DNA from: an uncultured Anaerolineales bacterium
GTDB taxonomy: Bacteria > Chloroflexota > Anaerolineae > UBA2200
Assembly: GCA_964478725.1 (NCBI GenBank)
Contig: CAYZKS010000001.1
Coordinates: forward strand, 2,903-66,902
Direction of reading: 5' to 3'
Length of the DNA: 64,000 nt
A model generated the notes under the pieces. That model was not told where the DNA came from and did not search any database. It saw nothing but the letters and a program-made list of their open reading frames with translations. Position numbers and translations under genes: made by a program. Below are positions 1 through 50,000 of this stretch, in pieces. Within the stretch, counting starts at the first letter, position 1, and each line of letters starts with the position of its first letter.

Positions 1-967
1 CGATTCCCAGGCCTGTCAGCTCGCGATGAAATGCCATGACTCGCTGCCGGCTCGAAGGCCGGTATTCGCACTCTGCGGTAGGGTTCACTGGGATGAGGTT
101 CACATGGCACAGCAAGTCGCCCAAGATCTCTGCCAGCTCTCTGGCTTGCGCTCGTTCATCGTTGAGCCCTTCGATCAGCGCATATTCAAAGGTGACGCGC
201 CGGCCGCTGCTCTGTGCGTAGGCGCGACAGGACTCGATCAGCTCTGCAATGGGGTAGCGCTTGTTGACCGGAACCAGACGGTTGCGCAGGGCGTCGCTGG
301 GAGCGTGCAGCGAAACCGCCAGACCCACCGCAAGGTTCTCGCTGGTCATGCGTCGGATGCCTGGCACTAGCCCGGCGGTGGAGATGGTGAAGCGCCGAGC
401 CCCCAATCCCATACCACGAGCGTCGTTCAAAACCCGGATCGCCTGCCAAGTGGCCTCATAGTTGGCCAATGGCTCGCCCATGCCCATGAATACCAGGTTG
501 GTGACTGCTTTGCCTTGGCTCTGGAGCTGACGAGCGAAATGCAGCACTTGCGCCACGATCTCACCACTGCTCAGGTTTCTTCTGAATCCACTCTGGCCAG
601 TGGCACAAAAGGGACAGCCGATTGCGCAGCCCACCTGTGTCGAGACGCACACAGTCTGGCGCCCTTCGTACCGCATTAGCACGGCCTCGATGGTCTCACC
701 ATCGCTCAGCTCGAACAAAGTCTTCACCGTCAGCGCGTCCGCCGACGTGCTGCTTTCCAGAGGCGTCAAAGACTGGATGAACGCAGTCTCGGCCAGCTTC
801 TGGCGAAAGGCCGTGGGCAGGTTCTTCATGTCTGCGAAGTCGTGGGCCAGCGAACGGTAGATCCAGGCAAAGAGCTGTTGCGCTCGGAACGTCGGCTCTC
901 CTTGTCCTTCGACCCATGCCAGCATCTCATCGTACGATAGATCCGTCAGCGCAAGCTTGTCAAGCAT
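1..967 (-). CDS. rlmN: 23S rRNA (adenine2503-C2)-methyltransferase RlmN, radical SAM; C-terminus runs off the window start
   Basis: Reverse-strand reading frame is open from ATG at 967..965 to position 1. N-terminus reads MLDKLALTDLSYDEMLAWVEGQGEPTFRAQQLF; radical-SAM motif CxxxCxxC (VGCAIGCPFCATGQ); GMGEPL and ISTAG motifs typical of RlmN/Cfr. Absent from the ORF table because it has no stop inside the window. Confidence 0.85.
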   Translation of the reverse strand, partial: MLDKLALTDLSYDEMLAWVEGQGEPTFRAQQLFAWIYRSLAHDFADMKNLPTAFRQKLAETAFIQSLTPLESSTSADALTVKTLFELSDGETIEAVLMRYEGRQTVCVSTQVGCAIGCPFCATGQSGFRRNLSSGEIVAQVLHFARQLQSQGKAVTNLVFMGMGEPLANYEATWQAIRVLNDARGMGLGARRFTISTAGLVPGIRRMTSENLAVGLAVSLHAPSDALRNRLVPVNKRYPIAELIESCRAYAQSSGRRVTFEYALIEGLNDERAQARELAEILGDLLCHVNLIPVNPTAECEYRPSSRQRVMAFHRELTGLGI

Positions 968-1826
968 ATCGAGTGTCTCCAGCGTCTGTCCGGGAATTGT
1001 TCCCCCTAGTCACGCCATGCTTCTGCCAGGCCTTCAGCCAAGCGCGGTGCAGAGCTGAGATGTCCGCGTACACTAGATCGGGTTTTGGGGCCGATTCGAC
1101 CAACTGTGCAGCCTCCGTGACGCCGCTGAGCAGCAGTATGGTGAAAAGGCCAGCCCTTCGTCCGCCTAGCACGTCAGTGTACAAGCCATCCCCGATGACG
1201 GCCGTTGTCTGCGGTGTGGCCCCCAATCTGTCCAACGCCAGCTCAAAGATGGCCCTCTCTGGCTTGCCAATTACCAGCGGCGCGACGTCCGTGGCGGCCT
1301 CGAGCGCAGCCAGGGTGGCTCCTGCTCCAGGTTCCAGCCCGGTTTCACTTGGAAAAGTCCGGTCTGGGTTGCTTCCGATCAGCCGGGCGCCATTCCGAAC
1401 GGCACGCATTGCTGCGTTCAGCTTGGCGTAGGTGAGCTGGCGATCCAGTCCGACTACCACATACTCGGCGTCCGCTGTGTCAGTCAGCACAAAACCGCTC
1501 TTCAAGAGCTCAGAGCGGATGCCTTCCTCCCCAATCAGGTACACACGACTCCCAGGCGGTGCGATCCTAGTCAGATAGGCCGCAGTCGCTACTGCCGAAG
1601 TAAGAAGGGCCTCCTGGGTTGTCTCGATACCCATGCGCCGCAGCTTGCCTACAAACTGTGCCAGCGTGAGGGTTGAGTTGTTGGTCAACAGCACGAAGCG
1701 CACACCAGCTTCACCCAAGAACGCAAGGAACTCCTTGCCGCCAGCGATTGCCTCGTTGCCATGGTAGAGGACGCCGTCCATATCAACTATGGCATGCTGG
1801 ATCCGCGAGAGGCTCATGGCATCCAT
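960..1826 (-). CDS. HAD-IIA family hydrolase (NagD-like sugar phosphatase)
   Basis: DMDGVLY at the N-terminus, LTNNS and GKP motifs, and a distal GDxxxTD motif (IGDGLYTDV), all characteristic of HAD-IIA. The stop lies 2 nt from the rlmN start. Confidence 0.8.
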   Translation of the reverse strand: MDAMSLSRIQHAIVDMDGVLYHGNEAIAGGKEFLAFLGEAGVRFVLLTNNSTLTLAQFVGKLRRMGIETTQEALLTSAVATAAYLTRIAPPGSRVYLIGEEGIRSELLKSGFVLTDTADAEYVVVGLDRQLTYAKLNAAMRAVRNGARLIGSNPDRTFPSETGLEPGAGATLAALEAATDVAPLVIGKPERAIFELALDRLGATPQTTAVIGDGLYTDVLGGRRAGLFTILLLSGVTEAAQLVESAPKPDLVYADISALHRAWLKAWQKHGVTRGNNSRTDAGDTRYA

Positions 1827-1828
1827 AC

Positions 1829-3190
1829 CTACTCCTCAGAAGCGTACGGCTGCGTTCTCGAGTATGTTTCATAGTCTGACGGCGTGTCGATGTCCACAAG
1901 GGATTGACTCTTCTCGAGATTGACCTCGAGCACACACTCCGGGTGACTCCGGATGACAATGCGGCCGCCCACGTCACCCTGAAGCGTCCACAAGGCTTCA
2001 AAATGGCGACGATCGAACAGCGCGGGCGAGCCGCGATGTGCTTGCCACACGGGAACAACGATGCTCTTGTCGCTGCCGTAGTAGGCCAGCACGATGCGCT
2101 CCAGGTCTTCCTGGGTTAGCTGTGGCTGATCTGCCAGCACGAATAGCGCCGCCTCGATCGCAGGGGCCAGGACGGAGAGTCCTGCGCGAATAGATGAACT
2201 GATGCCAGAAGCCCAATCTGTGTTCACGATGACCTGAACGCCTGTGGGAACGTGCGGCGCAATCTCTTCAGCATGGCTTCCAAGTACCGCCACAACCTGC
2301 TTCAGGTTAGCGTTCAGGACCGTGCGCAATACGTGCTCAACCATGCTGACCTGCCCTACGGGCAGAAGCTGTTTGGGACGCCCGAACCGCCTGGACCCGC
2401 CCGCCGCCAGCACTACCGCAGCCACCCGGCGCCAGTTCTCCAGCACTGGTCTCTCGCTCCCCGCTGCCCCAATCAGCACGCGATCCACGCTTGGGTTGTT
2501 CCGCACCCTGGCGGCGATCAGGCGCGCCGCCGCGAGCAAGCCTCCGTCATCTACCTGGTTGATGAGCGGTACGACGCGAGCTTGGGCAGGGGCACCCTTT
2601 AAGCCACCCAACGGATGTAACAGCACCCGGGCAATGGCCTCGCCCGTAATCGGTTCGTTGTACGCCAGTCCGGTGAGCTTTGCCACCAGGTCAGGGCGAT
2701 GAACGGCATTGGATGATAGCGGCTGGCCCAAGGCGGAAATTCCGCACACAGGAATGAGCAGTGTTGTCTCCTCTGGCACGACAGGTTCGTAAGCGGCAGG
2801 AGCTTTGAGCGGCAATCCTCGGGATCCATCCGCTTCGATAATCACCACGTCGGCCCGCAGCTTCAGCTGTTGTACCCACGCTAGCTCTATGCCCTTCAAC
2901 TTGTTCTCAGCCGTGATCCGCTTCGAAGCCAGAGTGACCGGACTTCGGAGCGGTAGAACTTTGCTGAGCAGCCTCAGCACCTGATCGAGTCTGTCTTCCA
3001 CGATGAGTTCTTGGGTCTGCTGCGAGGACGGAGGGCGGATCATGGTGGTGGTGGTTGTGATAACACGCCAACCTTGGCTGGCCAATTCGGTGGCAAGGCG
3101 GTACATAGCCGTGGTCTTGCCTCCCGCGCCGGTTAGAGAGATGATCTCGCCCTTGTGCACGCCGAGTGCTTCAGACAGTTGCACTGCCAA
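1829..3190 (-). CDS. Fusion protein: YqeC-like P-loop accessory protein (selenium-dependent molybdenum hydroxylase maturation) fused to a MocA/MobA-like molybdenum-cofactor nucleotidyltransferase domain
   Basis: N-terminal half carries SLTGAGGKTT, the P-loop typical of the YqeC family. C-terminal half carries VLAAGGSRRFGRPKQLL, the MobA/MocA NTP-transferase signature. 453 aa in a single ORF. Confidence 0.65.
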   Translation of the reverse strand: MAVQLSEALGVHKGEIISLTGAGGKTTAMYRLATELASQGWRVITTTTTMIRPPSSQQTQELIVEDRLDQVLRLLSKVLPLRSPVTLASKRITAENKLKGIELAWVQQLKLRADVVIIEADGSRGLPLKAPAAYEPVVPEETTLLIPVCGISALGQPLSSNAVHRPDLVAKLTGLAYNEPITGEAIARVLLHPLGGLKGAPAQARVVPLINQVDDGGLLAAARLIAARVRNNPSVDRVLIGAAGSERPVLENWRRVAAVVLAAGGSRRFGRPKQLLPVGQVSMVEHVLRTVLNANLKQVVAVLGSHAEEIAPHVPTGVQVIVNTDWASGISSSIRAGLSVLAPAIEAALFVLADQPQLTQEDLERIVLAYYGSDKSIVVPVWQAHRGSPALFDRRHFEALWTLQGDVGGRIVIRSHPECVLEVNLEKSQSLVDIDTPSDYETYSRTQPYASEE

Positions 3191-3310
3191 CTCCAGCCAC
3201 GCGCTGCCAGAGGGGCCTACGCGGGCACACTCGGCGCCTGAGCGATGTGGTAGCAGCCCTGAGGTCCAAGGTGGGGGAGGAAAACCAGCCTGTGGGTATT
3301 GACTCGGAGC

Positions 3311-3631
3311 TCAGGCATCCTTATCGTCCCTGGATGCGACGTCTTCTTCCACCTGGACTACTGCAGTCGCGATGGCCCAGCTCACCAGACCCCAGATACC
3401 TCCACAGAGCACGACCGCCAGCAGGACGTTGCGGGCCGACAGATTGTTGGCGCGCCCCAGCCCTACCAGGGTTAGCACAATGGCAACGACGGCAAAGACG
3501 CACCCCACGATCACTGGGCCGTCGGGTCGAGACCGGTCTTTTTTCTGGTTTGACGCTGAGGATGGTGTGCCTGAGGTTTTCATCGTTCGACAACCAGCTT
3601 TCTGCACGTCAGCCCGTGCTATTCCTTTCAC
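3311..3631 (-). CDS. Hypothetical small membrane protein (2-3 TM helices)
   Basis: Hydrophobic stretches (VIVGCVFAVVAIVLTLVGL; VLLAVVLCGGIWGLVSWAIA). GTG start overlaps the stop of the upstream MBL gene by 4 nt (GTGA). Alternative ATG start at 3583. Confidence 0.4.
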   Translation of the reverse strand: MKGIARADVQKAGCRTMKTSGTPSSASNQKKDRSRPDGPVIVGCVFAVVAIVLTLVGLGRANNLSARNVLLAVVLCGGIWGLVSWAIATAVVQVEEDVASRDDKDA

Positions 3632-4524
3632 GCAGACCGCAACTGACCTGCGTCAGGAAGGCACCAGAGCAAGCGCTGCTCCCTGACGATATGCGTGATC
3701 TCCCCGCTGTTGCTCAGGTGGCTCAGATGAGCGTGAAGGGTGGGATACAACAGGTAATACTCCTTGACAGTGCGCACTTGAATGCACAGCTGCTTACAAA
3801 TGGCCTGAAACAGTTGGCTGGCCTCGGACGGCCCCTGTGCCAGAAAGGCCTTGATCATGTCCAGAACCTTGGTGACTTGGGCGATGTTGCGATCGATGAG
3901 AGCATCGACATCGTACTGGATATCGCCGTGCCCTAGCACGTAGCGCGCACAGGAGTATCCTCTCAGTTTCTCCAGACTCTGGAGTCGCTGCGTGATGCTG
4001 TAGGCATACGAGATGGCGGCATTGTTCAGTTCCGTATCCCCTGCCAGTATGTCCCCTGTGAAGAACACATCCTGCGGGGCTTGGGGGCTGGCGGGACTCT
4101 CGGAGTGGATGATGTAACCGGTATGTGATGCAGTGTGGCCAGGCAATGGCACAGCCTGAACCTTCACCCCAGCCACGTCCAGCGTGCCTTCTGTCACCGA
4201 GACGTCGGCCTTGCAGGGCTGGGCGGCGAAGCGCGGCGTGCGCAGCTCGTTGAGAGGATCAGCGCCGCCGAACATGCACAGTGTGCCCCACAAGGGGTAC
4301 TCCAGCACCACCGCGTCATAGACCGGCGCGTAGATGCGCGCTCCTGTGTGTTGAACAAGGTATGCATTCCCGCCGACATGGTCCCCGTGCGCGTGCGTAT
4401 TCAGAATGGCAGCCAGGCGCAGATCCTGTTGCTCCAGCATCTGTAGCAACTGGCGGCCTGAACGCTGTCCGACGCCAGTGTCAATCAGGATAGCCTGGCG
4501 ATCTTCGCCAATGACCAGTCCCAC
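3628..4524 (-). CDS. MBL-fold metallo-hydrolase
   Basis: HAHGDHVGG metal-binding motif (HxHxDH) and downstream His residues; about 298 aa. Confidence 0.75.
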   Translation of the reverse strand: MGLVIGEDRQAILIDTGVGQRSGRQLLQMLEQQDLRLAAILNTHAHGDHVGGNAYLVQHTGARIYAPVYDAVVLEYPLWGTLCMFGGADPLNELRTPRFAAQPCKADVSVTEGTLDVAGVKVQAVPLPGHTASHTGYIIHSESPASPQAPQDVFFTGDILAGDTELNNAAISYAYSITQRLQSLEKLRGYSCARYVLGHGDIQYDVDALIDRNIAQVTKVLDMIKAFLAQGPSEASQLFQAICKQLCIQVRTVKEYYLLYPTLHAHLSHLSNSGEITHIVREQRLLWCLPDAGQLRSA

Positions 4525-4652
4525 GTTGCTAGCGCCGGGCAGATAGTAGACATTGTTAACGATGTGTTGAAGGGACAGGAACCGCCTCCTCGCGGTGACG
4601 TTCTTAGCACATCATACCGGAGAGCACACCAAACGCCAAAGTCACTCTGCCT

Positions 4653-4681
4653 TTGTCTTTTCCTCCGAAGGATGATATACT
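4653..4681 (+). promoter_or_regulatory. Putative sigma-70 promoter for the PIG-L/spermidine-synthase operon (TTGTCT-17-TATACT)
   Basis: -35 TTGTCT at 4653..4658, 17-nt spacer, -10 TATACT at 4676..4681; lies 33 nt upstream of the ATG at 4715. Confidence 0.4.
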
Positions 4682-4714
4682 GGGCGGCTGGCACGTTGAT
4701 TCTGGAGCAGGCCT

Positions 4715-5500
4715 ATGCCCAAGCCTCCCATTCAACCGGTCTATCTTTCGCCGCACCTCGACGACGCAGCGCTCTCCTGTGGAGGGCTCATCCATCAGCA
4801 GGCTTGTCGCGGGCAGCGGCCACAAGTAATCACCTTACTGGCAGGGCTGCCGGACTATGCCGAGCTATCCCCCTTTGCCGCGGACATGCATCTTCGCTGG
4901 GGACAGCCGGTTGATCCCGTGTCAGTGCGCCGCTGTGAGGATGCGCTCGCCATGGCCTATCTGGGAGCAGAATACCAGCACTGGGACTACCTGGACTGTA
5001 TCTACCGGCGCGATCCAGATGGCGCGAGCTTCCTCTACACCAGCGAATCAGCCTTGTTTGGCGCGATCCAGCATGAGGAACTGGCCCTGGTCCGTGACCT
5101 GACCGCCCGTCTTCAGAGCAGTTTCTCACCAGCAATGACTCGCTTCTACGCCCCTCTGTTTGGCAAGCACGTAGACCACCGCATTGCGCTCCAGGCTGCT
5201 CTTGCTCTGCGCCGCACAGGCTTCGAAGTTGAGTTCTACAGTGACTACCCCTACGCAGAAGATCCTGATGTGGTCAGGCACGCGCTCTCGGAATGGACTA
5301 CCTTGCCCTTGGCGCGTCTGGTGACGCTCAGCGTCGAAGACCTGAAGTCCAGGATTGGGGCGATCCTGCAGTACCGCTCACAGCTTGACGTGTTGTTCGG
5401 AAGTGAATCAAACGTACAGGCACGAGTCACGGCTTATGCGTGCTCGTTAGGCAGAGGCGGGACCCCCAAGGAGAAGTACTGGCGGGGAGGTGAGCTGTGA
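4715..5500 (+). CDS. PIG-L/LmbE family N-acetylglucosaminyl deacetylase
   Basis: N-terminal LSPHLDDAALSCGG, the zinc-binding HxDD signature of PIG-L/LmbE deacetylases. Confidence 0.7.
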   Translation: MPKPPIQPVYLSPHLDDAALSCGGLIHQQACRGQRPQVITLLAGLPDYAELSPFAADMHLRWGQPVDPVSVRRCEDALAMAYLGAEYQHWDYLDCIYRRDPDGASFLYTSESALFGAIQHEELALVRDLTARLQSSFSPAMTRFYAPLFGKHVDHRIALQAALALRRTGFEVEFYSDYPYAEDPDVVRHALSEWTTLPLARLVTLSVEDLKSRIGAILQYRSQLDVLFGSESNVQARVTAYACSLGRGGTPKEKYWRGGEL

Positions 5501-7073
5501 CCGGCTGGGCCTGCGGGGAGTGTCGCTAGTGCGTGGGCAGCGTTTTTTGCTCCACTTGCTCGTTCTGGCGGGTGGCGCGGCGACTATGAGCGTCGAGATG
5601 TGCGCCTCGCGCCTGCTGGCGCCCCATTTCGGCAATTCGCTGCCCGTGTGGGGCCTCTTGATTGGCCTGTTGTTGGCATACCTCGCTGTGGGCTACACCC
5701 TGGGAGGCAGGCTGGCAGATCGGACTCCGCTCACGAGCCTGCTCTACCAGTTGGCGGGTTGGGCGGGGTTCTTGATCGGCCTCATCCCTGTTGTGTCCCT
5801 GCCCATCTTGCGCTACTCCGCAAGAGGTTTCGCAGGCTATGAGGCTGGCCCCGTGTTAGGTGCGCTTCTCGCTGTGCTGGTCCTATTCGCAGCGCCCGTT
5901 GTTTTGCTTGGCTGCATCTCGCCGTTTGCCGTGCGTCTGAGTGTGCGGGAGTCAGGCTCTGCAGGAAGTGTGGCTGGGCGCGTGTATGCCCTGTCGACGC
6001 TAGGCAGTCTGCTCGGTACGTTCGTGCCCGTGTTCTTGCTGATCCCCACTTGGGGAACCCGGCGCAGCATTCTTGGCACCTCTCTGATGCTGTTGATCGT
6101 GGCGATAGCGGGCCTGTGGCAGGTTGCGCGACGAAGAGCCCTATGGTATATGCTGCTGCTGGCTTTGGTTGTAGGGCTATGCCTCCTGCCACCAGGGGAG
6201 ATCAAGGCCGCACAGGGACTGGTGTACGAGCGGGACTCGGCGTACAACTATATCCAGGTGCTGCACAACGACGATGAGTGGGTACTCAAGCTGAACGAAG
6301 GCGAAGGCATCCAGTCGGCGTACGCCTCGAGGCAGGTGTTGACCGGCTATGTCTATGACTATTTCCTGCTAGCCCCGTTGTTCCGCGCCGAACTGCGGTC
6401 GCTGCCGGTGGACAACCTTTGCTTGATTGGCCTGGCTGCTGGCACGATGGCCAGGCAATACAGCGCAGTGTTTGGACCACTTCCCATAGATGGTGTGGAA
6501 ATCGATCCTGCCGTGGTAGAGGCAGGCCAGCGCTTCATGGGCTTGGACTTGCCCAACCTGCGGGTGATCGTGGAGGACGGTCGCTATTTCCTGGCCCATA
6601 CTGAGGCGCGATACGATGTGATCATCGTGGATGCCTATCGCCCTCCCTACATACCGTTCCAGCTTACTACCGTCGAGTTCTTCCAACAGGTTCATGACCA
6701 TCTGACTCAGGACGGTGTCGTCGCGGTGAATGTGGCCCGTACCGAGGAAGACCGCACGCTGGTGGATGCCATCGCCAGCACCCTCAAAGCGGTTTACCCC
6801 AGCGTCTATGTCATGGATACACAGGGCGACGTCAACAGTATCGTGCTTGCCACCCGCCAACCCACGCGATTGGCAGTGGCCCTAGAGCGCATCGCTGGTG
6901 CCAGTGACCCGCTGCTGCGAGCGGTAGGGGGCCGCGCGCAAGGCCGCATCCAGGAGTATGAATCCATTCAGCGCAAGGTATTGACGGATGATTGCGCTCC
7001 TATAGAACACATCGTGCACGCCATGGTGGCGCGCTATCTTCTGCGGCAGAACGCTTCAGAGGTGAATCCGTGA
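5490..7073 (+). CDS. Fused MFS-like membrane domain / spermidine synthase (polyamine aminopropyltransferase family) protein
   Basis: N-terminal polytopic membrane region with a conserved SRLLAPxFG motif. C-terminal SpeE-like methyltransferase fold (GVEIDPAVVEAGQRF, IVEDGRYFL, YDVIIVDAY). Start is uncertain: GTG at 5490 has no spacing to its RBS; alternative ATG at 5586. Confidence 0.75.
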   Translation: MSCDRLGLRGVSLVRGQRFLLHLLVLAGGAATMSVEMCASRLLAPHFGNSLPVWGLLIGLLLAYLAVGYTLGGRLADRTPLTSLLYQLAGWAGFLIGLIPVVSLPILRYSARGFAGYEAGPVLGALLAVLVLFAAPVVLLGCISPFAVRLSVRESGSAGSVAGRVYALSTLGSLLGTFVPVFLLIPTWGTRRSILGTSLMLLIVAIAGLWQVARRRALWYMLLLALVVGLCLLPPGEIKAAQGLVYERDSAYNYIQVLHNDDEWVLKLNEGEGIQSAYASRQVLTGYVYDYFLLAPLFRAELRSLPVDNLCLIGLAAGTMARQYSAVFGPLPIDGVEIDPAVVEAGQRFMGLDLPNLRVIVEDGRYFLAHTEARYDVIIVDAYRPPYIPFQLTTVEFFQQVHDHLTQDGVVAVNVARTEEDRTLVDAIASTLKAVYPSVYVMDTQGDVNSIVLATRQPTRLAVALERIAGASDPLLRAVGGRAQGRIQEYESIQRKVLTDDCAPIEHIVHAMVARYLLRQNASEVNP

Positions 7074-7744
7074 GGCAACCCGCAATCGTGGGCACCGCCC
7101 GCATCGTGCTGTTGGTCTGCACGCCGTTGCTGCTGCTGCTTTCAAACCTGTACCTGGTGGCTACCCCGGCTTTTATCCGCCACGAGTATGGCAAGGCGGG
7201 CTTTCCACCTGCCGATGTATTCAGCCGGGCCGAGCGCCAAGCTCTGGCCGAGGCTACACTTCACTACCTCAGATCCAACCAGAGCCCTGAATACCTGGCT
7301 AGCCTGTCGGCTGAGGGCAGGAGCGTCTACAACGAGCGCGAGGTCAAGCACTTGGTGGATGTAGAGGCCGTGATGCGCGGAGCCTTCCTGGTGCAGGGCT
7401 TCTGCCTTGTGCTGGCCCTACTAGCGCTATTGCTCTCCTGGAGACTGGGGTTCTGCAGTATCGCACTGCGATCGGTGTGCGAGGGTTGCTGCATTCTAAT
7501 CGTCGGCCTTGCCGTCATCGGTTTTGCGGCTTACTTCAGCTTCGACCTGTTCTTCACGGCCTTTCACCGCATCTTCTTCTCGGGCGATTCCTGGCTGTTT
7601 GCCTTCTCCGACACCCTTATCCAACTCTTTCCGGTCGCCTTCTGGATGGATGCTACCTGGACGTTGGCCTTGCTCGCCGTGGCCGAGAGCATAGCTCTCG
7701 GATGCGTCGCCTGCCTGTTCTACCGGCGAGGGCTGGTGCAATGA
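7070..7744 (+). CDS. DUF1461/TIGR01906 integral membrane protein (Lit-type lipoprotein intramolecular transacylase family)
   Basis: Multi-TM protein with a conserved FHxxFFxxxxWxF motif (AFHRIFFSGDSWLF). GTG start overlaps the upstream stop (GTGA). The ORF-table start at 6992 would overlap the upstream gene by 80 nt. Confidence 0.5.
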   Translation: MRQPAIVGTARIVLLVCTPLLLLLSNLYLVATPAFIRHEYGKAGFPPADVFSRAERQALAEATLHYLRSNQSPEYLASLSAEGRSVYNEREVKHLVDVEAVMRGAFLVQGFCLVLALLALLLSWRLGFCSIALRSVCEGCCILIVGLAVIGFAAYFSFDLFFTAFHRIFFSGDSWLFAFSDTLIQLFPVAFWMDATWTLALLAVAESIALGCVACLFYRRGLVQ

Positions 7745-8379
7745 TCACGATCGAGGAGGCTCGCGCCTACTATCCTGGAGAGGACGCAGCGCACGATTTT
7801 GACCACGTGCTGCGGGTTCTGAACCTGGCGGAGCGCATTGGTACAGCGGAAGGTGCTGACATGCAGGTCCTGCGCGCTGCGGTCCTGCTACACGATGTGG
7901 CGCGCGCAGACGAGGACTGCGGCGGGTGCTGCCACGCTCAAGTCGGTGCGATTCGCGCACGTACCATCCTTGCAGGGCACCCGCCGGACAAAATCGAGGC
8001 TGTTGCCCGTGCCATTGCCACGCATCGCTTCCGTAACGCGGGGGCGCCCGAGACACTGGAGGCGCGCATCTTGTACGACGCCGACAAGCTGGACGCGATT
8101 GGTGCGATCGGGATCGCGCGCGCTTATGCCATCGCCGGCCGTCGCGCTCAGCGCTTGTGGGCAAGTGTCCCGGCCGAGTATGCGCAACGCAGCGTCGTTG
8201 ACGGACGCCATGACCTCGCTGACTCGGAGCACACGCCGGTGCATGAGTTCGTGTTCAAGCTGTCTCGGCTGCACGATACCTTGTTCACCCCAACAGCGAG
8301 GGCCATTGCCGCCCAACGGCATGCCTACATGGTTCAGTTTTTCCACAGGCTTGAGCAGGAAATAGCCGGCGAGCGCTGA
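7741..8379 (+). CDS. HD-domain phosphohydrolase
   Basis: HDFDH...LLHDVAR...YDADKLD, the HD-domain metal-binding signature. ATG overlaps the upstream stop (ATGA). The ORF-table start at 7477 is an unlikely N-terminal extension. Confidence 0.8.
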   Translation: MITIEEARAYYPGEDAAHDFDHVLRVLNLAERIGTAEGADMQVLRAAVLLHDVARADEDCGGCCHAQVGAIRARTILAGHPPDKIEAVARAIATHRFRNAGAPETLEARILYDADKLDAIGAIGIARAYAIAGRRAQRLWASVPAEYAQRSVVDGRHDLADSEHTPVHEFVFKLSRLHDTLFTPTARAIAAQRHAYMVQFFHRLEQEIAGER

Positions 8380-8506: not shown

Positions 8507-8911
8507 ATGAAGTTCTCGGCCAAAGAGCAGTATGGATTGCGTGCCATGGTAGAGCTGGCGAAGCGCTACGGGCAAGGTCCGGTGTCGCTTGGCACCGTAG
8601 CCCAGAGCCAGGCCATCTCTCTGGCCTTTCTGGAGCAGGTGGTCATGCCGCTGCGCGCGGCCGGTCTCCTGGATAGCACCAGAGGGGCGAATGGCGGATA
8701 CGCGCTCACGCGCAATCCCGGATCTGTCACGGTGGCAGAGATATTGCGGGCGCTTGAGGGTGATGTGGTGTCCTTCTCCTGTGTCAGCAATGCGGCCGAT
8801 GCACCCTGCAAACGCGGAGAGGGCGCTTGTGGGGCCAGACAAGTGTGGGAGCGCGTGCAGGGAAGGCTTACCGAAGCCCTGGATGCCACCACGCTGGCTG
8901 ACCTGTGCTAA
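8507..8911 (+). CDS. Rrf2 family transcriptional regulator (CymR/IscR-like)
   Basis: N-terminal winged-helix region (KEQYGLRAMVELA...ISLAFLEQVV). Its position directly upstream of iscS and mnmA mirrors the Bacillus cymR-yrvO-mnmA arrangement. Confidence 0.85.
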   Translation: MKFSAKEQYGLRAMVELAKRYGQGPVSLGTVAQSQAISLAFLEQVVMPLRAAGLLDSTRGANGGYALTRNPGSVTVAEILRALEGDVVSFSCVSNAADAPCKRGEGACGARQVWERVQGRLTEALDATTLADLC

Positions 8912-8943
8912 TGGTCAGGCGAGCGCAGAATAAGTACTGAAAG

Positions 8944-10128
8944 GTGTCAAACATGCAGAAGCGTGCACGATTTGTCTATCTTGATCATGCTGCGACGACC
9001 GCAGTGGACCCTCGCGTGGTCGACGCGATGTTGCCCTACTTCACAGAGAAATATGGGAATGCTTCCAGCATCTATTCCAAGGGACGCGAGGCTCACCAAA
9101 GCATGGAGACTGCGCGCCAGACCGTGGCTGACTTGATGCACGCGGATGCAAAAGAGATCATCTTTACCAGTTGTGGGTCAGAAAGCGACAACCTGGCGAT
9201 TCGTGGTGTGAGCTTCGCCAGTCGCGACAAAGGCAATCACATCATCACCACGCCCATCGAGCATCACGCGGTGAGCCATACCTGCGAGCAATTGCACAGG
9301 GAGTTCGGTTTTGAAATCACGTACTTGCCGGTGGACAAGTACGGCGTAGTGGACCCGGACGATGTGGGACGCGCGATTACGGACAGGACGGTGCTCATCA
9401 CCATCATGTATGCCAACAACGAAGTGGGTACGATCGAGCCTATCGCTGAGATAGGCAAGATCGCCCGCGCCAAAGGCGTGGCGTTCCACACCGATGCAGT
9501 GCAGGCGGGTGGGACTCTGGACCTTGACGTCCAGACACTCAATGTGGACCTGCTCTCTCTTTCGGCGCACAAATTCTACGGACCCAAAGGGGTGGGTGTG
9601 CTCTTCCAGCGACGCGGTACACCGCTACTGCCGATGCAGACTGGCGGTGACCATGAACGCGGACGGCGTGCGGGGACCGAGAACGTTCCCTACATGGTTG
9701 GGCTGGCCACGGCCCTCCAACTGGCCTATGAGCATCGTGATGCGAATAACTCGCGCATTGCGGCGTTGCGCGATCAACTCGTCAAGGGGGTGCTAGAGGC
9801 GATTCCGGATTGCCATCTGAACGGCCACCCGGCCAACCGCCTTCCCAACAACGCGAATTTTGCCTTCTCAGGCATAGAAGGCGAATCAATCGTGCTGAAT
9901 CTAGACCTGATGGGCATCGCTGCCAGCTCTGGGTCGGCATGTTCGTCTGCATCCATGGAACCATCGCACGTGCTCGTGGCGCTGGGCCTGCCAGCAGAAC
10001 TTTGCCACGGCAGCTTGCGGCTCAGCCTGGGGAACGAGAACACGGAAGAGGACGTGAACTATGTGCTGTCGGTTCTTCCGGGTATCGTGAGCAAATTGCG
10101 GGCTATGTCCCCAGTCTACAAGGCATGA
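8944..10128 (+). CDS. iscS: Cysteine desulfurase (NifS/IscS family, PLP-dependent)
   Basis: LDHAATT, the PLP-lysine region SAHKFYGPKGVG, and the active-site loop SSGSACSS; 394 aa. Confidence 0.9.
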   Translation: MSNMQKRARFVYLDHAATTAVDPRVVDAMLPYFTEKYGNASSIYSKGREAHQSMETARQTVADLMHADAKEIIFTSCGSESDNLAIRGVSFASRDKGNHIITTPIEHHAVSHTCEQLHREFGFEITYLPVDKYGVVDPDDVGRAITDRTVLITIMYANNEVGTIEPIAEIGKIARAKGVAFHTDAVQAGGTLDLDVQTLNVDLLSLSAHKFYGPKGVGVLFQRRGTPLLPMQTGGDHERGRRAGTENVPYMVGLATALQLAYEHRDANNSRIAALRDQLVKGVLEAIPDCHLNGHPANRLPNNANFAFSGIEGESIVLNLDLMGIAASSGSACSSASMEPSHVLVALGLPAELCHGSLRLSLGNENTEEDVNYVLSVLPGIVSKLRAMSPVYKA

Positions 10129-11240
10129 CCGAAGCGCAGCTCGCAACACCAAAGCGAGTCGTGGTTGCTCTCAGCGGAGGCGTGGACAGTTCGGTAGCGG
10201 CAGCGCTCTTGGTGCAGCAAGGGTATGCTGTCTCGGGGATCATGTTGCGGCTGTGGACGACCACCAGCAATGAGTACACCGGCAATGACCGCTTTTCCGA
10301 GGTTGATATCGCGGACGCGCGCCGCGTCTGCGCGATGCTAAACATCCCGTTTCGTCTGGTGAATGTGGATGCAGAGTTCAAGTCACGCGTGGTGGACTAC
10401 TTCTGCGACGGCTACGCCCGTGGTCAGACGCCCAATCCATGTTTGGCCTGCAACCTGCATATCAAGTTTGGCGTGCTTCTGCGTCTGGCTATTGAGGCTG
10501 GTGCTGACTATCTGGCTACTGGGCACTATGCGCGTGTCCTGTCGCGGGAAGGGCAGCACTTTCTGCTGAAGGGCCTGGATAGATCCAAAGATCAATCATA
10601 TGTCCTGTACATGCTGGGTCAGCAGCAATTGGGGCACGTGCTCTTCCCCGTGGGTGGCTTGACCAAGCACCAAGTGCGTGCGCTGGCATCCAAGCACGGC
10701 CTACCCACTGCTGCGCGCTCGGCAAGCCAAGACGCCTGTTTTGTGGGCGCGACTGACTATCGCGCCTTTGTAGCACGAGCCCGACCGGAAACCGTGCGCG
10801 CGGGTCCGATTCTGGATCAGGATGGCCGTGTGTTGGGAGAGCACCACGGCGTGGCTTTTTACACCGTCGGCCAGCGTCAGGGAATGGGGATCGCGGCAGC
10901 GCATCCCCTGTACGTGCTGGCTGTGGACGCTGCGCGTAATGCCATCATCGTCGGGCCGAGATCTGCGCTCTTGCAGCGCGAGCTGCTCGCCGAGCAGGTG
11001 CGCTTTGTTGCCGACAGCGCGCCAGAGTCGGCGATATGCATCTCCGCCAAGATTCGCTACAAGGCGCCGGAGGCGCTGGCGACGTTGATCCCTTTACCTG
11101 GCAAGAGAGCGCGTGTAGTGTTTGCCGAACCGCAAATAGCGATCACGCCGGGGCAAGGCGTGGTTTTCTACGCCGGCGAAGCAGTGCTCGGTGGAGGAAT
11201 TATCGCCGGCTCTTCGCCCAGTGAGGTGCCATGTGCCTAA
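10125..11240 (+). CDS. mnmA: tRNA-specific 2-thiouridylase MnmA
   Basis: PP-loop SGGVDSS, catalytic PNPxLxCN region, C-terminal MnmA domains. ATG overlaps the iscS stop (ATGA). The ORF-table start at 9810 is an artefactual N-terminal extension inside iscS. Confidence 0.9.
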   Translation: MTEAQLATPKRVVVALSGGVDSSVAAALLVQQGYAVSGIMLRLWTTTSNEYTGNDRFSEVDIADARRVCAMLNIPFRLVNVDAEFKSRVVDYFCDGYARGQTPNPCLACNLHIKFGVLLRLAIEAGADYLATGHYARVLSREGQHFLLKGLDRSKDQSYVLYMLGQQQLGHVLFPVGGLTKHQVRALASKHGLPTAARSASQDACFVGATDYRAFVARARPETVRAGPILDQDGRVLGEHHGVAFYTVGQRQGMGIAAAHPLYVLAVDAARNAIIVGPRSALLQRELLAEQVRFVADSAPESAICISAKIRYKAPEALATLIPLPGKRARVVFAEPQIAITPGQGVVFYAGEAVLGGGIIAGSSPSEVPCA

Positions 11241-17351: not shown

Positions 17352-18002
17352 ATGAAGAGAGCGATTGTGCTTGGTATGGCGCTGCTCACAGCTCTGAGCA
17401 TAGCCTGGGTGGCTTCAGCTCAGCCACTCGCGCAGGGCCCATCCAAGATCAACCAGCCCGCGGAGAACGGCGTAGTGAGAGGCACCGTACCCATTGTGGG
17501 CACGGCCGTCGATGCTGACTTTTGGAAGTACGAAGTCTACTACGCGACTGAGCCCAATCCCAGCAACCAGTGGATCTTCATCGGCGAGGTGCATGCGAAG
17601 CAAGTCACGGAAGGCCTGCTGGAGACCTGGTACACGGAAACCGTCCCGGATGGCAAGTACAGCCTGCGTTTGCGCGTGGTCAACCGTACTGGCAACTATC
17701 GGGATATCGAGACCCATGGCATTCTCGTTGCGAACACTACGCCTACTGATACGCCCGTGCCGACCAGCACTCCGGAGCCAACCGCGACGATCACACCTGC
17801 CGCCACGCCCACCTTCATCATCCCGACGTCGCCGCTGTCCCAACCAACCGTGACGCCTACCTTGGCGCGTCCAAGTCGGTCTACCTTGCCGGATGCGCTG
17901 GATCTGGACTCCTGGAGACGCTCTCTGATTCTGGGTGCAGAGTGGATGGCTGGCATCATAGCCGTCATTGGTCTTATTCTCCTCGTGCGGCGAAGGTTCT
18001 AG
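17352..18002 (+). CDS. Secreted/anchored hypothetical protein: signal peptide, beta-sandwich-like domain, Pro/Thr-rich linker, C-terminal TM helix with RRRF tail
   Basis: Cleavable signal peptide (MKRAIVLGMALLTALSIAWVASAQP). Domain with alternating beta-strand patterning. Pro/Thr-rich linker (TPTDTPVPTSTPEPTATITPAATPT). C-terminal hydrophobic helix plus basic cluster. Confidence 0.5.
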   Translation: MKRAIVLGMALLTALSIAWVASAQPLAQGPSKINQPAENGVVRGTVPIVGTAVDADFWKYEVYYATEPNPSNQWIFIGEVHAKQVTEGLLETWYTETVPDGKYSLRLRVVNRTGNYRDIETHGILVANTTPTDTPVPTSTPEPTATITPAATPTFIIPTSPLSQPTVTPTLARPSRSTLPDALDLDSWRRSLILGAEWMAGIIAVIGLILLVRRRF

Positions 18003-30532: not shown

Positions 30533-31825
30533 ATGGAGCTGAAGGATTTCCCACGGCCCGCTGATAACAGCCGCCGGGGCATTCACTGGTCCGCCTCGGT
30601 GTTCCACCCCAGTGGCTCTTCCCTCGATTGGTGGGTGAACGAACTCCTGGCCATGAACATCAAGTGGGTCAAACTGATGGACAGCGGCTCAGGTTCATGC
30701 AAGCATGTGTGTCAGAAGCTGTTGGCGAACCAGATCATCCCCGTAGTGCGCATCTTCCGGGGTGCGCCCAACCCTGGGCATTTGGGCGCGCAGGAACTGC
30801 AGACGGTCGCGGAACTCGTAGCCCTTGGCGTCAGATACCTGGAAAGCAACAACGAACCCAACCTGGCGATTGAATGGCAGCCCGGTCAATGGCAGAGTGG
30901 CGGCAGGCCAGAGCTGGTCATGCAGCACTGGCTTCAGGATGCCAAAGCGATCATCAACCTTGGCGGCTATCCCGCCTTCCCGGCCCTGGCGCAGTGCGGG
31001 CGCCAAGCGGAAAACGGCAGCATTGACTGGTACACGAATGCTTTCAAATGGCTCGATGAGAAGGCGCACGCGGATGCGGTGGACGTGTTCACTCACGGAG
31101 CCTGGATAGCGGTTCACGACGCAGCGTTGAACCATTGCTACAAGGATAGTGATGGAGCGTGGCATTTTGAGTACCCTCTGGATCCGATCTGTCAGAAGGA
31201 TCAGCCGGGGAAGACGATTATGGATGATGACAACTCCATCATCGGCCATCGTGTTCCTGCCCAGTTGCTCAAACAGCATTTTGACCTGACTGTACCTGTG
31301 ATCTCTACTGAGGGTGGCGTGTTTGTGCCCGCCAATGGATGGCAACAATGGGACACGCGCTATCCTGGCTATGACTACAATGGGCAAGCAGAGCGCACCG
31401 TGGCCATGTTCCAATGGCTACGCACTAACGCGGAGGATTACTTCTTTGGCATGTGTCCCTGGTTAATTGCTAACGAGCGCATGGGGCACGTGGATCCCGC
31501 GTGGACCGAAAACGCGTGGTATCGCATGGACCGCGAGCTGCCGGTGGTTAGTGCAGTGAAGTCTATGGGACCAGAGCCAACACCTCCCCCTGTTCTGCCA
31601 CTGGAAGAGACTTTGCGGAACGCTTCGTGGAACCGACGTGGACTGGCTTATAATGCCGAATTGGCCTTCCCACAATACGCACGCCGCAGCAAGTTTGGGT
31701 CGCCCCTGACGCCTGAATTCGACGTCATCTGGCAAGGGAAGACCTACCGCGTGCAGGGATTCACTGGCGCCATCGTCTACGCAGAAGTGGGGGACTGGGG
31801 AAACATCAAGAACGTAAGCTGGTAG
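30533..31825 (+). CDS. Clan GH-A (GH5-like) glycoside hydrolase, TIM-barrel
   Basis: Acid/base motif SNNEPN and nucleophile motif ISTEGG in the expected order and spacing for clan GH-A. GAAGGAGG RBS. An extended -10-like TATAAT at 30467. Confidence 0.55.
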   Translation: MELKDFPRPADNSRRGIHWSASVFHPSGSSLDWWVNELLAMNIKWVKLMDSGSGSCKHVCQKLLANQIIPVVRIFRGAPNPGHLGAQELQTVAELVALGVRYLESNNEPNLAIEWQPGQWQSGGRPELVMQHWLQDAKAIINLGGYPAFPALAQCGRQAENGSIDWYTNAFKWLDEKAHADAVDVFTHGAWIAVHDAALNHCYKDSDGAWHFEYPLDPICQKDQPGKTIMDDDNSIIGHRVPAQLLKQHFDLTVPVISTEGGVFVPANGWQQWDTRYPGYDYNGQAERTVAMFQWLRTNAEDYFFGMCPWLIANERMGHVDPAWTENAWYRMDRELPVVSAVKSMGPEPTPPPVLPLEETLRNASWNRRGLAYNAELAFPQYARRSKFGSPLTPEFDVIWQGKTYRVQGFTGAIVYAEVGDWGNIKNVSW

Positions 31826-37796: not shown

Positions 37797-38840
37797 CTAC
37801 CTCTCGAAGCCCACTCCGTACAGTCTCTCTTGTTTGCCAAGCAGAAAGCCGGCGGGGAACGGGTCCGTCGGGTCCAGCACGAACTGTTGGATGCCCATGA
37901 TCCAAGCACTCCCGCGGATGGTGGGCACTGCGGCCTTGAATTGGCCGACCCTCGTCTCCTCCACCAGCTGTCCGTAGAACAGGCTGCCGATGATGCTCTC
38001 ATGCACGAATTCCTGGTTGAGCTTGAGCTCACCTTTGGCCCATAGTGTGGCCATCTTGGCGCTGGTGCCGGTACCACAAGGAGAGCGGTCCATGCCTGCC
38101 GGGGGCACCACCACCGCATTCTTCATGCTCGCGGCAGGGTGCGTGGCTGGGGCGGAGAACTCCACGTAGTTGACACAGTCGATTTCAGGGTACTCGGGAT
38201 GGTGGATCTCCACCTGGTCGTTCACTGCCTTCCAGATCTTCGCTCCGCAGTTGATGATCTCGGCCGCGTGCTCGGGCGCAATCACCAAGCCCACGCTCGC
38301 AGCTGGCAGGATCGCGTAAAAGTTGCCTCCGTAGGCGATGTCTACTGTCACCTGCCCCAAGTCGGGCACATCCACATTGACAGCAGTTTTGTACAGAAAG
38401 GATGGCACATTGCGAATAGTCACCGACTCAGCCTTGTCATCCTTGACGTGAACCTCGGCACGCACCACGCCAGCCGGGGTGTCGAGGACGATCTCTGTCA
38501 GTGGCTCCCTGGCGGGGACGATGCCAGTCTCCACCAGAACGGTGCAGATGGCAATGGTTCCGTGACCACACATCGTGGCATAGCCGCCAGGCTCCAGGTA
38601 GAGGACTCCGAAGTGCGCTTCCTTGGCGGTGGGTGGGGTGATCAGCGAGGCATACATGTTGTTGTGGCCGCGCGGCTCGTGCACCAAGAAGGTGCGCAAG
38701 TAGTCCATGTGGTCGCGCACGTGCTTGAGCTTGGCCAACATGCTCTCGCCAGGGATTTCGGGCAGGCCGCCCGTTACCACTCTCTCTGCATTCCCTCCGG
38801 TGTGGGAATCCACCACGGTGAGCATACGACAAAACTTCAT
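37797..38840 (-). CDS. Proline racemase family enzyme, Cys/Cys type (proline racemase or 4-hydroxyproline 2-epimerase)
   Basis: Catalytic motifs MCGHGTI and SPCGTGTSA (both catalytic positions Cys); about 347 aa, typical of the family. Confidence 0.85.
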   Translation of the reverse strand: MKFCRMLTVVDSHTGGNAERVVTGGLPEIPGESMLAKLKHVRDHMDYLRTFLVHEPRGHNNMYASLITPPTAKEAHFGVLYLEPGGYATMCGHGTIAICTVLVETGIVPAREPLTEIVLDTPAGVVRAEVHVKDDKAESVTIRNVPSFLYKTAVNVDVPDLGQVTVDIAYGGNFYAILPAASVGLVIAPEHAAEIINCGAKIWKAVNDQVEIHHPEYPEIDCVNYVEFSAPATHPAASMKNAVVVPPAGMDRSPCGTGTSAKMATLWAKGELKLNQEFVHESIIGSLFYGQLVEETRVGQFKAAVPTIRGSAWIMGIQQFVLDPTDPFPAGFLLGKQERLYGVGFER

Positions 38841-38876: not shown

Positions 38877-40205
38877 CTAGTACCCCAGCTCTTTGAGCGC
38901 TTCTCGCACAGCCGTCAAAGTCTGATCCACGTCTTCCTCCGTATGCGCCAGCGAGGCCACCGAGTGCAGGCAGGCAGAGGGTGACATGTAGACGCCGTGC
39001 TTGAACAGGGCCAGCGCGAACTGCTGGTACTTGGCTCGATCCACAAAGGCGCAGAACTCACGATAATCCTGGATCGCAGGGCGCGCGGTGAACATGATTT
39101 GCAGCATGGGCCCCACGGCCTGCACGATGGCCTGAATTCCGCTTTCTGCGAAAAGGCTGCGCAAGCCTTGAGTGAGCCTTTCTCCGATGCGCCAAACGTG
39201 GCGGAAGCCGGCGCCGCCGTCATGGGCGAGCTCCTTGAGGCTGGCGCGAGCGGCAAACAGCCCGATGCGTGAGGCGTTCTGCGTACCATAGTGCAGGACG
39301 CCTCCCCATGTCAGTGCTTGCATGATGCCCGCTCGCCCCACGAGCGCAGCCACGGGCAATCCGGCGCCAAGCGCTTTGCCGAACGTAGCTATGTCGGGAT
39401 GGAGGCCATAGTACTCCTGGCAGCCCCCCGCCGCTACCCGAAACCCTGTCACGGTCTCGTCTAGGATGAAAAGGATGCCGTTCTCGCGGCACAACTTGCC
39501 TAGCCCCTGAAGGTAGCCTGGTTCAGGGGGAATCACGCCCATGTTGGCCATGATGCCCTCAGTGATCACCGCCGCGATCTGGCCCCGATTCGCGTCTATC
39601 GCGCGCTCCACGGCCGGCAGATCGTTCCAGGCCACCAGAATGGTATCGTCCAAGGCGCGCCGGTTCAAACCGGAGCTGTCGGGGATTCTGATGGGATCGT
39701 TGCGCCAGCCCAGCGCGGCGGGCAATTGCGGGTGCGCGCTCACCAGGAAGTCATCGTACCAGCCATGATAGTGCCCTTCGAACTTGATGAACCTGGGCCT
39801 CCCGGTGAAACCACGAGCCAGGCGGATGGCGGCCATGGTGGCCTCGGTACCCGTATTGGCAAAGCGTACGCGTTCGGCGCACGGCACCATCTGCTGAATG
39901 AGCTCGGCTACCTCAATCTCGATTTCCGTGGCGGCTGCGAACAGCGTCCCGGTGACGGCTGCCTGCTGCACAGCTTCGACGATGCGCGGATGAGCGTGTC
40001 CCAACGGCAAAGCGCCATATGCCATCATCCAGTCTATATAGCGGTTGCCGTCCGCATCATAGATGTGAGAGCCATCGCCGCGCTCAACAAAAACGGGGCA
40101 CTCGCCGTAGTTGGCGGGCCCCCGCGACGGTGAGCTGCCACCTTCGATCAGCACCCCCAGTGCTCTCCGAAAGAGCTGCTCGGATCGCTTGTTTACATAC
40201 GACAC
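38877..40205 (-). CDS. Class III PLP-dependent aminotransferase (glutamate-1-semialdehyde aminomutase-like)
   Basis: GSA-AT-like N-terminus (VSYVNKRSEQLFRRA...GGSSPSR), PLP lysine region (ATFGKALGAG), DETVTGFR. GTG start at 40205 preceded by an AGGAGG RBS. The ORF-table start at 40328 is an extension. Confidence 0.8.
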   Translation of the reverse strand: MSYVNKRSEQLFRRALGVLIEGGSSPSRGPANYGECPVFVERGDGSHIYDADGNRYIDWMMAYGALPLGHAHPRIVEAVQQAAVTGTLFAAATEIEIEVAELIQQMVPCAERVRFANTGTEATMAAIRLARGFTGRPRFIKFEGHYHGWYDDFLVSAHPQLPAALGWRNDPIRIPDSSGLNRRALDDTILVAWNDLPAVERAIDANRGQIAAVITEGIMANMGVIPPEPGYLQGLGKLCRENGILFILDETVTGFRVAAGGCQEYYGLHPDIATFGKALGAGLPVAALVGRAGIMQALTWGGVLHYGTQNASRIGLFAARASLKELAHDGGAGFRHVWRIGERLTQGLRSLFAESGIQAIVQAVGPMLQIMFTARPAIQDYREFCAFVDRAKYQQFALALFKHGVYMSPSACLHSVASLAHTEEDVDQTLTAVREALKELGY

Positions 40206-40339
40206 TGATGTGCCTCCTGGCAGACCGCAATGTCGGCTGTCTCGACTCTCCCTGACTCGCGCAGGGAGAGCCATCAGCCAAACGTCTGCATGACGTGGGA
40301 GGGCGCGGAGAGCACCTCCTTGTTGCACATGCTCGGCCC

Positions 40340-41891: not shown

Positions 41892-41947
41892 ACAGACCTC
41901 CGTCTTGAGATATCCCTATGTCTCTTCCTGACCAGAGGCTTCCCACG

Positions 41948-42997: not shown

Positions 42998-43029
42998 TGG
43001 TATCTCCTTCCTGGACCTAGATAGTCACC

Positions 43030-43992: not shown

Positions 43993-44087
43993 GACGGCGC
44001 TCCCCCTCCTAGAATCAGTCCTGCGTGCACACGATGTGTGAGCTTGGTTGGCCAGTCTCCTCGCCAACCAAGCTCACTTCTAAGCTG

Positions 44088-45392: not shown

Positions 45393-45576
45393 TTGTATCC
45401 CTCCTCCTAGTTGTCTGGACTATCCACGGATACGCACCGGACTGGCTTCGTTCCACTTCTTGGCATCTGCGCCCAGATCACCTCCTTTCGTCGGCGGCCG
45501 CACTGCCTGTGCAATTGTGTGCAGCGACGATTCATCATAGTGCCAGGTCGGCGAGTGCTGCACTGTCCTGGGCCGA

Positions 45577-46485: not shown

Positions 46486-46556
46486 AAAACTCCTTTCAAC
46501 GACTGTCATGATGATGCACACCCCTCCCGGCTCCCAAGCTCAGAGAGGCGAATGCC

Positions 46557-47591: not shown

Positions 47592-47664
47592 TGTTTCCTA
47601 TCCCCTTTCTCTTGATCGAGTTGCCGTTTATGGTCCAACGCCATGGCTTCCTTTCGTGCTGACG

Positions 47665-48828: not shown

Positions 48829-48865
48829 TTGCGCTCGTGCGCGGATTCACGTTCTTCGCCAGGCT

Positions 48866-49935: not shown

Positions 49936-50000
49936 CAGAGCTCTGACTGGTAAGCGCGAAGCGCATGGCGCCAACGGGCCGGGTCTCGGATGCACGATGG

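Follow-up and report, generated by a model that had tools for sequence, protein, structure and literature searches.

A yqeC-mocA-like fusion gene in an Anaerolineales genome

The DNA analysed here is a 64,000-nucleotide (64-kb) stretch of contig CAYZKS010000001.1 from an uncultured Anaerolineales bacterium, and we call this whole stretch the window. On its minus strand, at positions 1829..3190, lies a single complete open reading frame (ORF) in which a YqeC domain is joined to a nucleotidyltransferase domain that resembles MocA. In the list of ORFs it runs for 453 amino acids (aa) from a TTG at 3190, and it is intact, as the original prediction, made from the sequence alone, had described it. 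The motifs SLTGAGGKTT and VLAAGGSRRFGRPKQLL (the latter from nucleotide 2410) are both present. The true start is probably the GTG at 3184, which would give a protein of 451 aa, since homologues begin MRL...; a JGI metagenome contig encodes a protein (P0001) that is identical to the window fusion apart from its start codon, and this protein was called at 451 aa.

A single ORF of this kind might be an artefact in which two genes have been joined by a sequencing or assembly error, but we give this explanation practically no chance. More than 120 protein clusters (44–99% identity) and 80 species-level genomes have this two-domain architecture at full length, and it is shared by nearly all of the best 150 representatives at 50% identity (see below). 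In addition, the domain junction (aa 241–256; 2423..2470, minus strand) is short, structured and conserved, and it contains no intergenic remnant. Across 65 aligned homologues E251 is invariant and P248, W253 and V256 are nearly so, and the window fusion departs from that alignment at none of its 48 invariant positions and at hardly any of the near-invariant ones. The hhalign match to YqeC stops at about aa 246 and the match to MocA begins at about aa 257. A structure model of the full-length protein has a predicted local distance difference test score (pLDDT) of 95.5 and a predicted template-modelling score (pTM) of 0.92, with the junction predicted to form beta strands at pLDDT 96–98. The architecture of the relatives and the conserved, structured junction thus rule out a frameshift or false assembly join; the fusion is a real single gene, and it belongs, as an ordinary member, to a large family that databases already annotate.

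The N-terminal domain is YqeC

The N-terminal domain (aa 1–250; 2441..3190, minus strand) had been taken for YqeC, and profile comparisons agree. It passes the NCBIfam equivalog model for YqeC, TIGR03172, with 193.4 bits against a cutoff of 73.05 (aa 16–230, model positions 1–207 of 209), Pfam places PF19842 (YqeC) at aa 17–167 with 150 bits against a threshold of 27.6, and hhalign aligns this half with E. coli YqeC at 99.9% probability (E 2e-33, 226 columns). E. coli YqeC (b2876) is homologous over the whole domain, at 36% identity by tblastn, and common to the two proteins are GAGGKT[TS], TTTT, IEADGSRGxPLKAP...EP, HR, HPxGxxK and (I/L)N. The Walker A motif or P-loop, GAGGKTT (G21–T27), is encoded by nucleotides 3110..3130 of the minus strand and is common to E. 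coli YqeC; its G21, G23, G24 and K25 are invariant across the 65 homologues. The EADG motif (E119–G122; 2825..2836, minus strand) is Walker-B-like and is followed by the conserved K129-P131-E135-P136-P139. E. coli YqeC is a stand-alone protein of 256 aa, encoded beside yqeB and divergently from mocA, whereas the YqeC of the window is covalently joined to its transferase.

We also compared this half with MobB, and the comparison came out in favour of YqeC: hhalign gives MobB a probability of 13.9% and aligns the P-loop alone, and there is no likeness beyond that loop, so MobB is ruled out. Other known P-loop families are rejected by NCBIfam, hhalign and a fold search, and a search of PDB sequences with the N-terminal domain returned only insignificant matches to the P-loop of FtsY. 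In the fold search the YqeC domain is like proteins of the SIMIBI class, namely the signal recognition particle (SRP)/FtsY, MinD/ParA, G3E and BioD proteins; at the top stand FtsY, SRP54, MinD and MeaB, which are GTPase and ATPase switches, and the matches include cofactor-insertion GTPases. The domain is modelled confidently as a nucleoside triphosphatase (NTPase) of the SIMIBI class, and not as specifically MobB-like. Template-modelling (TM) scores against MeaB/MMAA, UreG, HypB and CooC are low (0.3–0.47, with 11–18% identity), and scores at least as high are reached by the SRP GTPases and the MinD/ParA ATPases, so the assignment is to the class and to no specific subfamily within it.

The C-terminal domain resembles MocA

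The C-terminal domain (aa 258–442; 1865..2419, minus strand) was delimited with PF12804, TIGR03310 and hhalign. Pfam finds PF12804 (NTP_transf_3) at aa 258–417 with 128.7 bits against a threshold of 27, covering model positions 1–158 of 160, and the nucleotide-binding motif LAAGGSRRFGRPKQLL occupies aa 261–276 (2363..2410, minus strand). Among the NCBIfam models the best for this half is that of MocA, TIGR03310, which gives 165.9 bits over aa 258–442, below its cutoff of 186.45; for reference, E. coli MocA scores 214.2 bits and a fusion relative, P0168, 195.2 bits. The MobA models give 31.9–36.9 bits, the uncharacterised DVU_1551 family 125 bits, and PucB/NboR-type models also score substantially. 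By hhalign, E. coli MocA matches at 99.1% (score 118) and E. coli MobA at 94.2% (score 53), and the nearest PDB relatives (3d5n, 2waw and 2we9) are MobA/MocA-related proteins from Sulfolobus and Mycobacterium. The original assignment to the MobA/MocA type thus stands as far as PF12804 and the best model are concerned, although the equivalog cutoff for MocA itself is not reached.

E. coli MocA (YgfJ, b2877; CTP:molybdopterin cytidylyltransferase, EC 2.7.7.76) belongs to the best-matching family and has the same fold and the same motif layout (xAAGxSxRxG...K..LP, D-x-P and DIDTPxD), at 23% identity; the window copy differs in being fused to YqeC. The first motif reads LAAG in the window, TAAG in E. 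coli MocA and LAGG in E. coli MobA, and Neumann et al. reportedly described TAAG in MocA and LAGG in MobA in 2011. By sequence, the domain is nearer to MocA than to the GTP-specific MobA. Since it falls under the equivalog cutoff and carries LAAG, its specificity for CTP is a property that we infer.

The fusion is widespread and has arisen in several forms

The original prediction regarded YqeC and MocA as usually separate and their fusion as notable. The fusion is genuine, but it is not unusual. A search of 5.8 billion protein sequences gave 1,139 matches at E≤1e-10; the best 120 of these all have both Pfam domains (44–99% identity), and nearly all of them cover about 97% of the query, the few others being partial sequences. 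A scan of species-representative genomes gave 426 confirmed relatives, the best 80 of which are all fusions, 79 of them full length and 1 cut by a contig end. These 80 come from Chloroflexota, Acidobacteriota and Desulfobacterota, mostly from Chloroflexota, where the fusion is found in Anaerolineae, Ardenticatenales, Aggregatilineales, Chloroflexia, Ca. Amarolinea and Ca. Flexifilum. Among 1.84 billion representatives at 50% identity, 1,033 match at E≤1e-30; nearly all of the best 150 (≥229 bits) are about 440–480 aa long and are matched in one stretch, the few exceptions being variant fusions or partial proteins of lesser length. Public YqeC::NTP_transf_3 fusions have the architecture and length (about 440–480 aa) of the window protein at 35–70% identity, and JGI calls them "molybdenum cofactor cytidylyltransferase", NCBI "selenium cofactor biosynthesis protein YqeC".

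The variant fusions are of three kinds. In P0168, P0179, P0182, P0212 and P0260 the order is reversed, with NTP_transf_3 preceding YqeC, and P0168, with 195 bits for TIGR03310 and 172 bits for TIGR03172, passes the two models. P0131, P0145 and P0160 (628–672 aa) carry YqeC with two tandem NTP_transf_3 domains, and P0131, like P0168, passes the MocA cutoff; the MobA model TIGR02665 also gives 75.8 bits, against a cutoff of 151.85, with the first of its transferase copies. Finally, P0199 is a 726-aa triple fusion of a YqeB C-domain, YqeC and a MocA-like domain (123–2303 of locus L093) that is known from a single contig of a metagenome-assembled genome (MAG), GCA_041579715.1. It scores 286 bits with TIGR03309 (YqeB) and is 47% identical to residues 270–524 of E. 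coli YqeB. The contigs of P0179 and P0199 are short or uninformative for gene context. The reverse-order, two-transferase and triple fusions are independent fusion events.

Relatives lie beside molybdenum hydroxylase or purine-catabolic genes

For gene context, 83 fusion loci, taken with at most 10 kb of flanking sequence and in many cases lying on truncated MAG contigs, were searched by tblastn with the proteins of the E. coli K-12 xdhA-to-xdhD region and SelD; divergent hydroxylases may be missed in such a search. In E. coli K-12 itself, yqeB-yqeC is divergent from mocA-ygfK-ssnA-ygfM-xdhD. A gene for the YqeB C-domain lies within 1 kb of the fusion, immediately upstream, in 31 of the 83 loci. 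A molybdenum hydroxylase neighbourhood, with a large subunit of the xanthine dehydrogenase (XDH) family within 10 kb, is found in 30, FAD subunits and Fe-S subunits in 25 each, and an XdhC/CoxI-like gene in 12. Among the distant relatives (35–44% identity), 39 loci have an XDH-family large subunit and/or yqeB, most commonly in the order xdhB-xdhC(FeS)-xdhA-yqeB-fusion. The window's own clade comprises 24 loci, mostly at 44–58% identity, and has the order [PIG-L][MBL]-ssnA-small membrane protein-ygfK (or PreA-like)-fusion-HAD, where MBL is a metallo-beta-lactamase-fold gene and HAD a hydrolase gene; its synteny extends through clearly unrelated housekeeping genes. The ssnA and ygfK of these relatives are bona fide (TIGR03314, 538–565 bits; TIGR03315, 1,023 bits), and SsnA and YgfK act as enzymes in the anaerobic degradation of uric acid by the 2,8-dioxopurine pathway (bioRxiv 10.1101/2025.04.24.650524). 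The xdh/yqeB and ssnA/ygfK contexts are combined in 2 loci, and 22 of the 83 have none of these genes nearby, their spot-checked neighbours being unrelated. With E. coli SelD as the query, no selD was found within 10 kb of the fusion in any of the 83.

Three loci (L009 at 6010–6630, L020 and L029) have a small Oxidored_molyb gene of the sulfite-oxidase family about 3.4–4.1 kb from the fusion. This neighbour is probably coincidental, because such an enzyme uses molybdenum-molybdopterin (Mo-MPT) and not molybdopterin cytosine dinucleotide (MCD).

The window lacks the ssnA-ygfK module

Unlike the E. coli locus, the window has no yqeB, xdh or selD near the fusion, and whereas most public fusions have either ssnA-ygfK (the window's clade) or xdh-yqeB (the distant clade) as neighbours, the window copy has neither. 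Apart from ssnA and ygfK, which it lacks, the window is colinear with its relatives: some 5 kb with these two genes, which stand between MBL and the fusion in relatives, are missing from 3191–4524 of the window (compared with 3575–9806 of L008, and with L007 and L028). Where relatives carry ygfK or a PreA-like gene there is a 120-nucleotide spacer (3191..3310) with no recognisable remnant and no Rfam match, and a search for remnants of ssnA or ygfK in 3150–3700 gave none at E≤5. In other relatives a PreA-like gene (DHO_dh+Fer4) replaces ygfK, or ssnA is missing (L013); thus this slot is evolutionarily variable.

The window does keep the small membrane protein that usually follows ssnA. Its gene (3311..3631, minus strand) encodes 106 aa without a family assignment, is orthologous to the small gene of relatives (65–67% identity to small ORFs of L008 and L007), and is present in 12 of the 83 loci. 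At its stop, the MBL-fold hydrolase gene (3628..4524, minus strand) overlaps the beginning of the gene for the small membrane protein. By synteny it corresponds to the MBL gene that relatives carry upstream of ssnA, and 7 of the 83 loci have it. It had been suggested that these two genes form an operon with the fusion and might encode further maturation factors, a suggestion that finds no support in such small numbers of loci; in the closest relatives these positions flank the purine-catabolic ssnA and ygfK rather than maturation factors. Because the loci are few and the synteny runs on through unrelated genes, the two are better read as leftovers of an ssnA/ygfK neighbourhood than as cofactor-maturation factors. 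PIG-L (4715–5500), spermidine-synthase-like (5490–7073), Lit (6992–7744) and HD (7477–8379) genes follow, colinear with relatives.

The tightly coupled gene on the other side of the fusion had been overlooked. It encodes a HAD-IIA family hydrolase (960..1826, minus strand), starts 2 nucleotides past the fusion's stop codon, and is probably co-transcribed with it. Of the 83 loci, 20 have a HAD homologue no more than 1 kb downstream, every one in the window's own clade, so it is a tighter local partner than the MBL and membrane protein genes, yet a clade-specific one. Beyond HAD, the matching contig L001 carries RlmN, Rpe and Asp23. A promoter and terminator scan of 800–4900 gave weak consensus matches only, one of them upstream of MBL, which does not settle the operon structure.

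As the original prediction had stated for molybdenum hydroxylases and selD, Pfam annotation of the whole 64 kb contains no molybdoenzyme, xanthine-oxidase-family subunit, yqeB, xdhC, selD or moa/moe gene, and tblastn of the window with E. coli XdhA/B/C/D, YgfM, YqeB and SelD gave no match. An Rfam scan of the whole window had 0 matches, and so detected no molybdenum cofactor (Moco) riboswitch, and there are no tRNAs. The remainder of the window is given to housekeeping or unrelated catabolism. An Rrf2-family regulator, a cysteine desulfurase (Aminotran_5) and the tRNA 2-thiouridylase MnmA stand in a row at 8507–11240; this is a sulfur-relay cluster unrelated to the fusion. NifS-like desulfurases also sulfurate Moco in xanthine-oxidase-family enzymes. 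On the minus strand at 38877–49762 are a GntR regulator, a DAO-type oxidase, a proline racemase/4-hydroxyproline epimerase-like protein, a DHDPS-like protein, a branched-chain-type ABC transporter (a binding protein, two permeases and two ATPases) and an aminotransferase, followed by a second Pro_racemase gene at 37797–38840; the cluster looks like an operon for catabolism of hydroxyproline or a proline derivative. At 53933–57361 is a replication cluster that encodes a DnaB helicase, a DnaD/DnaB_2-like protein and, in an ORF of 513 aa, a protein with two AAA modules, one of Bac_DnaA/AAA type (aa 115–270) and one like IstB/DnaC (aa 302–480). The latter ORF may be a duplicated helicase-loader; its start overlaps the preceding gene, and the true start may be later. 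ORFs without a Pfam family lie at 17352–18002 (216 aa), 30533–31825 (430 aa), 49965–51812 (615 aa) and 52754–53356 (200 aa). The first three are conserved on matching metagenome contigs, and the 615-aa ORF adjoins a SEC-C/DUF7986 protein at 51836–52801.

Discussion

YqeB, YqeC and YgfJ/MocA were proposed as co-clustered accessory proteins of selenium-dependent molybdenum hydroxylases by Haft & Self 2008 (PMC2276186), and the adjacency of yqeC and mocA has been known since that study; a 2024 study of C. difficile found yqeC adjoining mocA as well (PMC11448449). YqeB and YqeC together mark the selenium-cofactor trait, and each alone may act in a way unrelated to selenium (PMC5029168). The marker criterion is the co-occurrence of YqeC with YqeB and SelD in a genome (Zhang 2008, as cited in PMC5029168; PMC2276186). 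As late as 2024, a description of YqeB and YqeC gave them "no known predicted domains" and no conceivable mechanism (PMC11448449). In the literature that we covered, which is incomplete, we found no mention of a YqeC-MocA fusion or of a SIMIBI fold for YqeC.

On balance we favour, if without great confidence, a mechanism in which the fusion would act as a rigid two-domain accessory protein, a MocA-type transferase with a YqeC gate, in maturation of the MCD cofactor of xanthine-oxidase-family hydroxylases. The C-terminal domain would catalyse the established MocA reaction, in which Mo-MPT and CTP give MCD and pyrophosphate, and it is because of that reaction that we assign MCD synthesis to it. 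Nucleotide binding or hydrolysis by YqeC would then gate the hand-over of the cofactor from the transferase to a YqeB/XdhC-type chaperone, and from there to the apo-enzyme. This switch role is suggested by the fold class, the fusions and the gene neighbourhoods, and by analogy with MeaB, UreG, HypB, CooC and MobB. MobA and MobB in the bis-molybdopterin guanine dinucleotide branch, including natural MobA/MobB fusions (NF011056), share this logic: a small SIMIBI-class P-loop protein goes with a Moco nucleotidyltransferase, either as a separate partner or fused to it. The hydroxylase that the fusion serves would have to be encoded outside the window, as would any yqeB or selD; the physical partners of the fusion, and any involvement of selenium, we infer. 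The original argument that a covalent fusion is Rosetta-stone evidence for YqeC at the MCD step is legitimate. It is strengthened by the presence of this fusion in three phyla or more, by fusions of opposite order, among them P0168 with its passes for both MocA and YqeC, by the YqeB-YqeC-MocA triple fusion, and by yqeB upstream in 31 of 83 loci. The fusion family ties YqeC, YqeB and MocA to one cofactor-maturation step.

Several observations weigh against this mechanism. No client is seen, there being no molybdoenzyme, yqeB, xdhC, selD or moa/moe gene in the 64 kb. The C-terminal domain lies 20 bits under the MocA equivalog cutoff, and its LAAG motif is intermediate between the TAAG of MocA and the LAGG of MobA. 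A gating NTPase and an ATP-dependent enzyme such as BioD are not told apart by the fold search, and we know of no YqeC for which NTPase or transferase activity has been measured. Finally, deletion of yqeC in C. difficile gave no clear phenotype (PMC11448449).

The BioD likeness leads to the idea that YqeC, instead of gating transfer of the cofactor, modifies it chemically, as an ATP-dependent catalyst of the type of dethiobiotin synthetase, a kinase or a ligase. It might, for instance, activate the cofactor so that the labile selenium or sulfur ligand can be inserted, and MocA would act earlier or later. We think this unlikely, as the top fold matches are the switches FtsY, SRP54, MinD and MeaB, no substrate is known, and neither the 83 loci nor the window has a selD that would supply a link to selenium. 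The score of 165.9 against 186.45 with TIGR03310 could instead mean that the C-terminal domain is no Moco cytidylyltransferase and uses another acceptor, or a nucleotide other than CTP, in a pathway other than that of MCD; the 125 bits of the DVU_1551 family, the substantial scores of PucB/NboR-type models and the 22 of 83 loci without a molybdenum-related neighbour would fit such a function. That seems to us quite improbable, since the MocA model clearly fits best (166 bits against 32–37 for MobA; hhalign scores 118 against 53), the closest solved proteins are MobA/MocA-related, fusion relatives directly adjoin xdh genes and yqeB, and the fusion members P0168 and P0131 pass the MocA cutoff.

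For the window copy itself, the colinearity with relatives that extends to everything but ssnA and ygfK, together with the lack of a client enzyme in view, raises the question of whether the adjacent module was lost from its lineage and the gene stayed behind as a relic without function. We judge this very improbable: the ORF is intact and keeps every invariant position of the 65 homologues, an identical protein is encoded on an independent metagenome contig, and orphan contexts are common (22 of 83) for intact family members.

A further extension of the accessory-protein mechanism, possible but doubtful at present, is that YqeC is not selenium-specific and is the dedicated SIMIBI NTPase of the MCD branch, in complex with MocA and, where present, YqeB. 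A fusion without local yqeB, xdh, ssnA/ygfK or selD, such as that of the window, would then serve selenium-independent MCD enzymes. If true, such a role would also account for the weak phenotype of the C. difficile yqeC deletion.

How the labile selenium/MCD cofactor of the selenium-dependent molybdenum hydroxylases is assembled has been an open question since these enzymes were discovered. The window gene alone adds little to it, because hundreds of such fusions are already in databases, and public annotation, which names just one half of each protein, hides the link between YqeC and MocA. The value lies instead in the family-wide pattern, in which fusions in both orders, a triple fusion, adjacency to xdh and yqeB, and a SIMIBI fold come together, and the fusion proteins are convenient single-polypeptide reagents for biochemistry. 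Fusions in both orders suggest that YqeC and MocA cooperate physically, and the triple fusion and the adjacency in 31 of 83 loci suggest the same for YqeC and YqeB. The pattern thus gives a concrete, testable model in which YqeC would be a SIMIBI NTPase working physically with MocA and YqeB.

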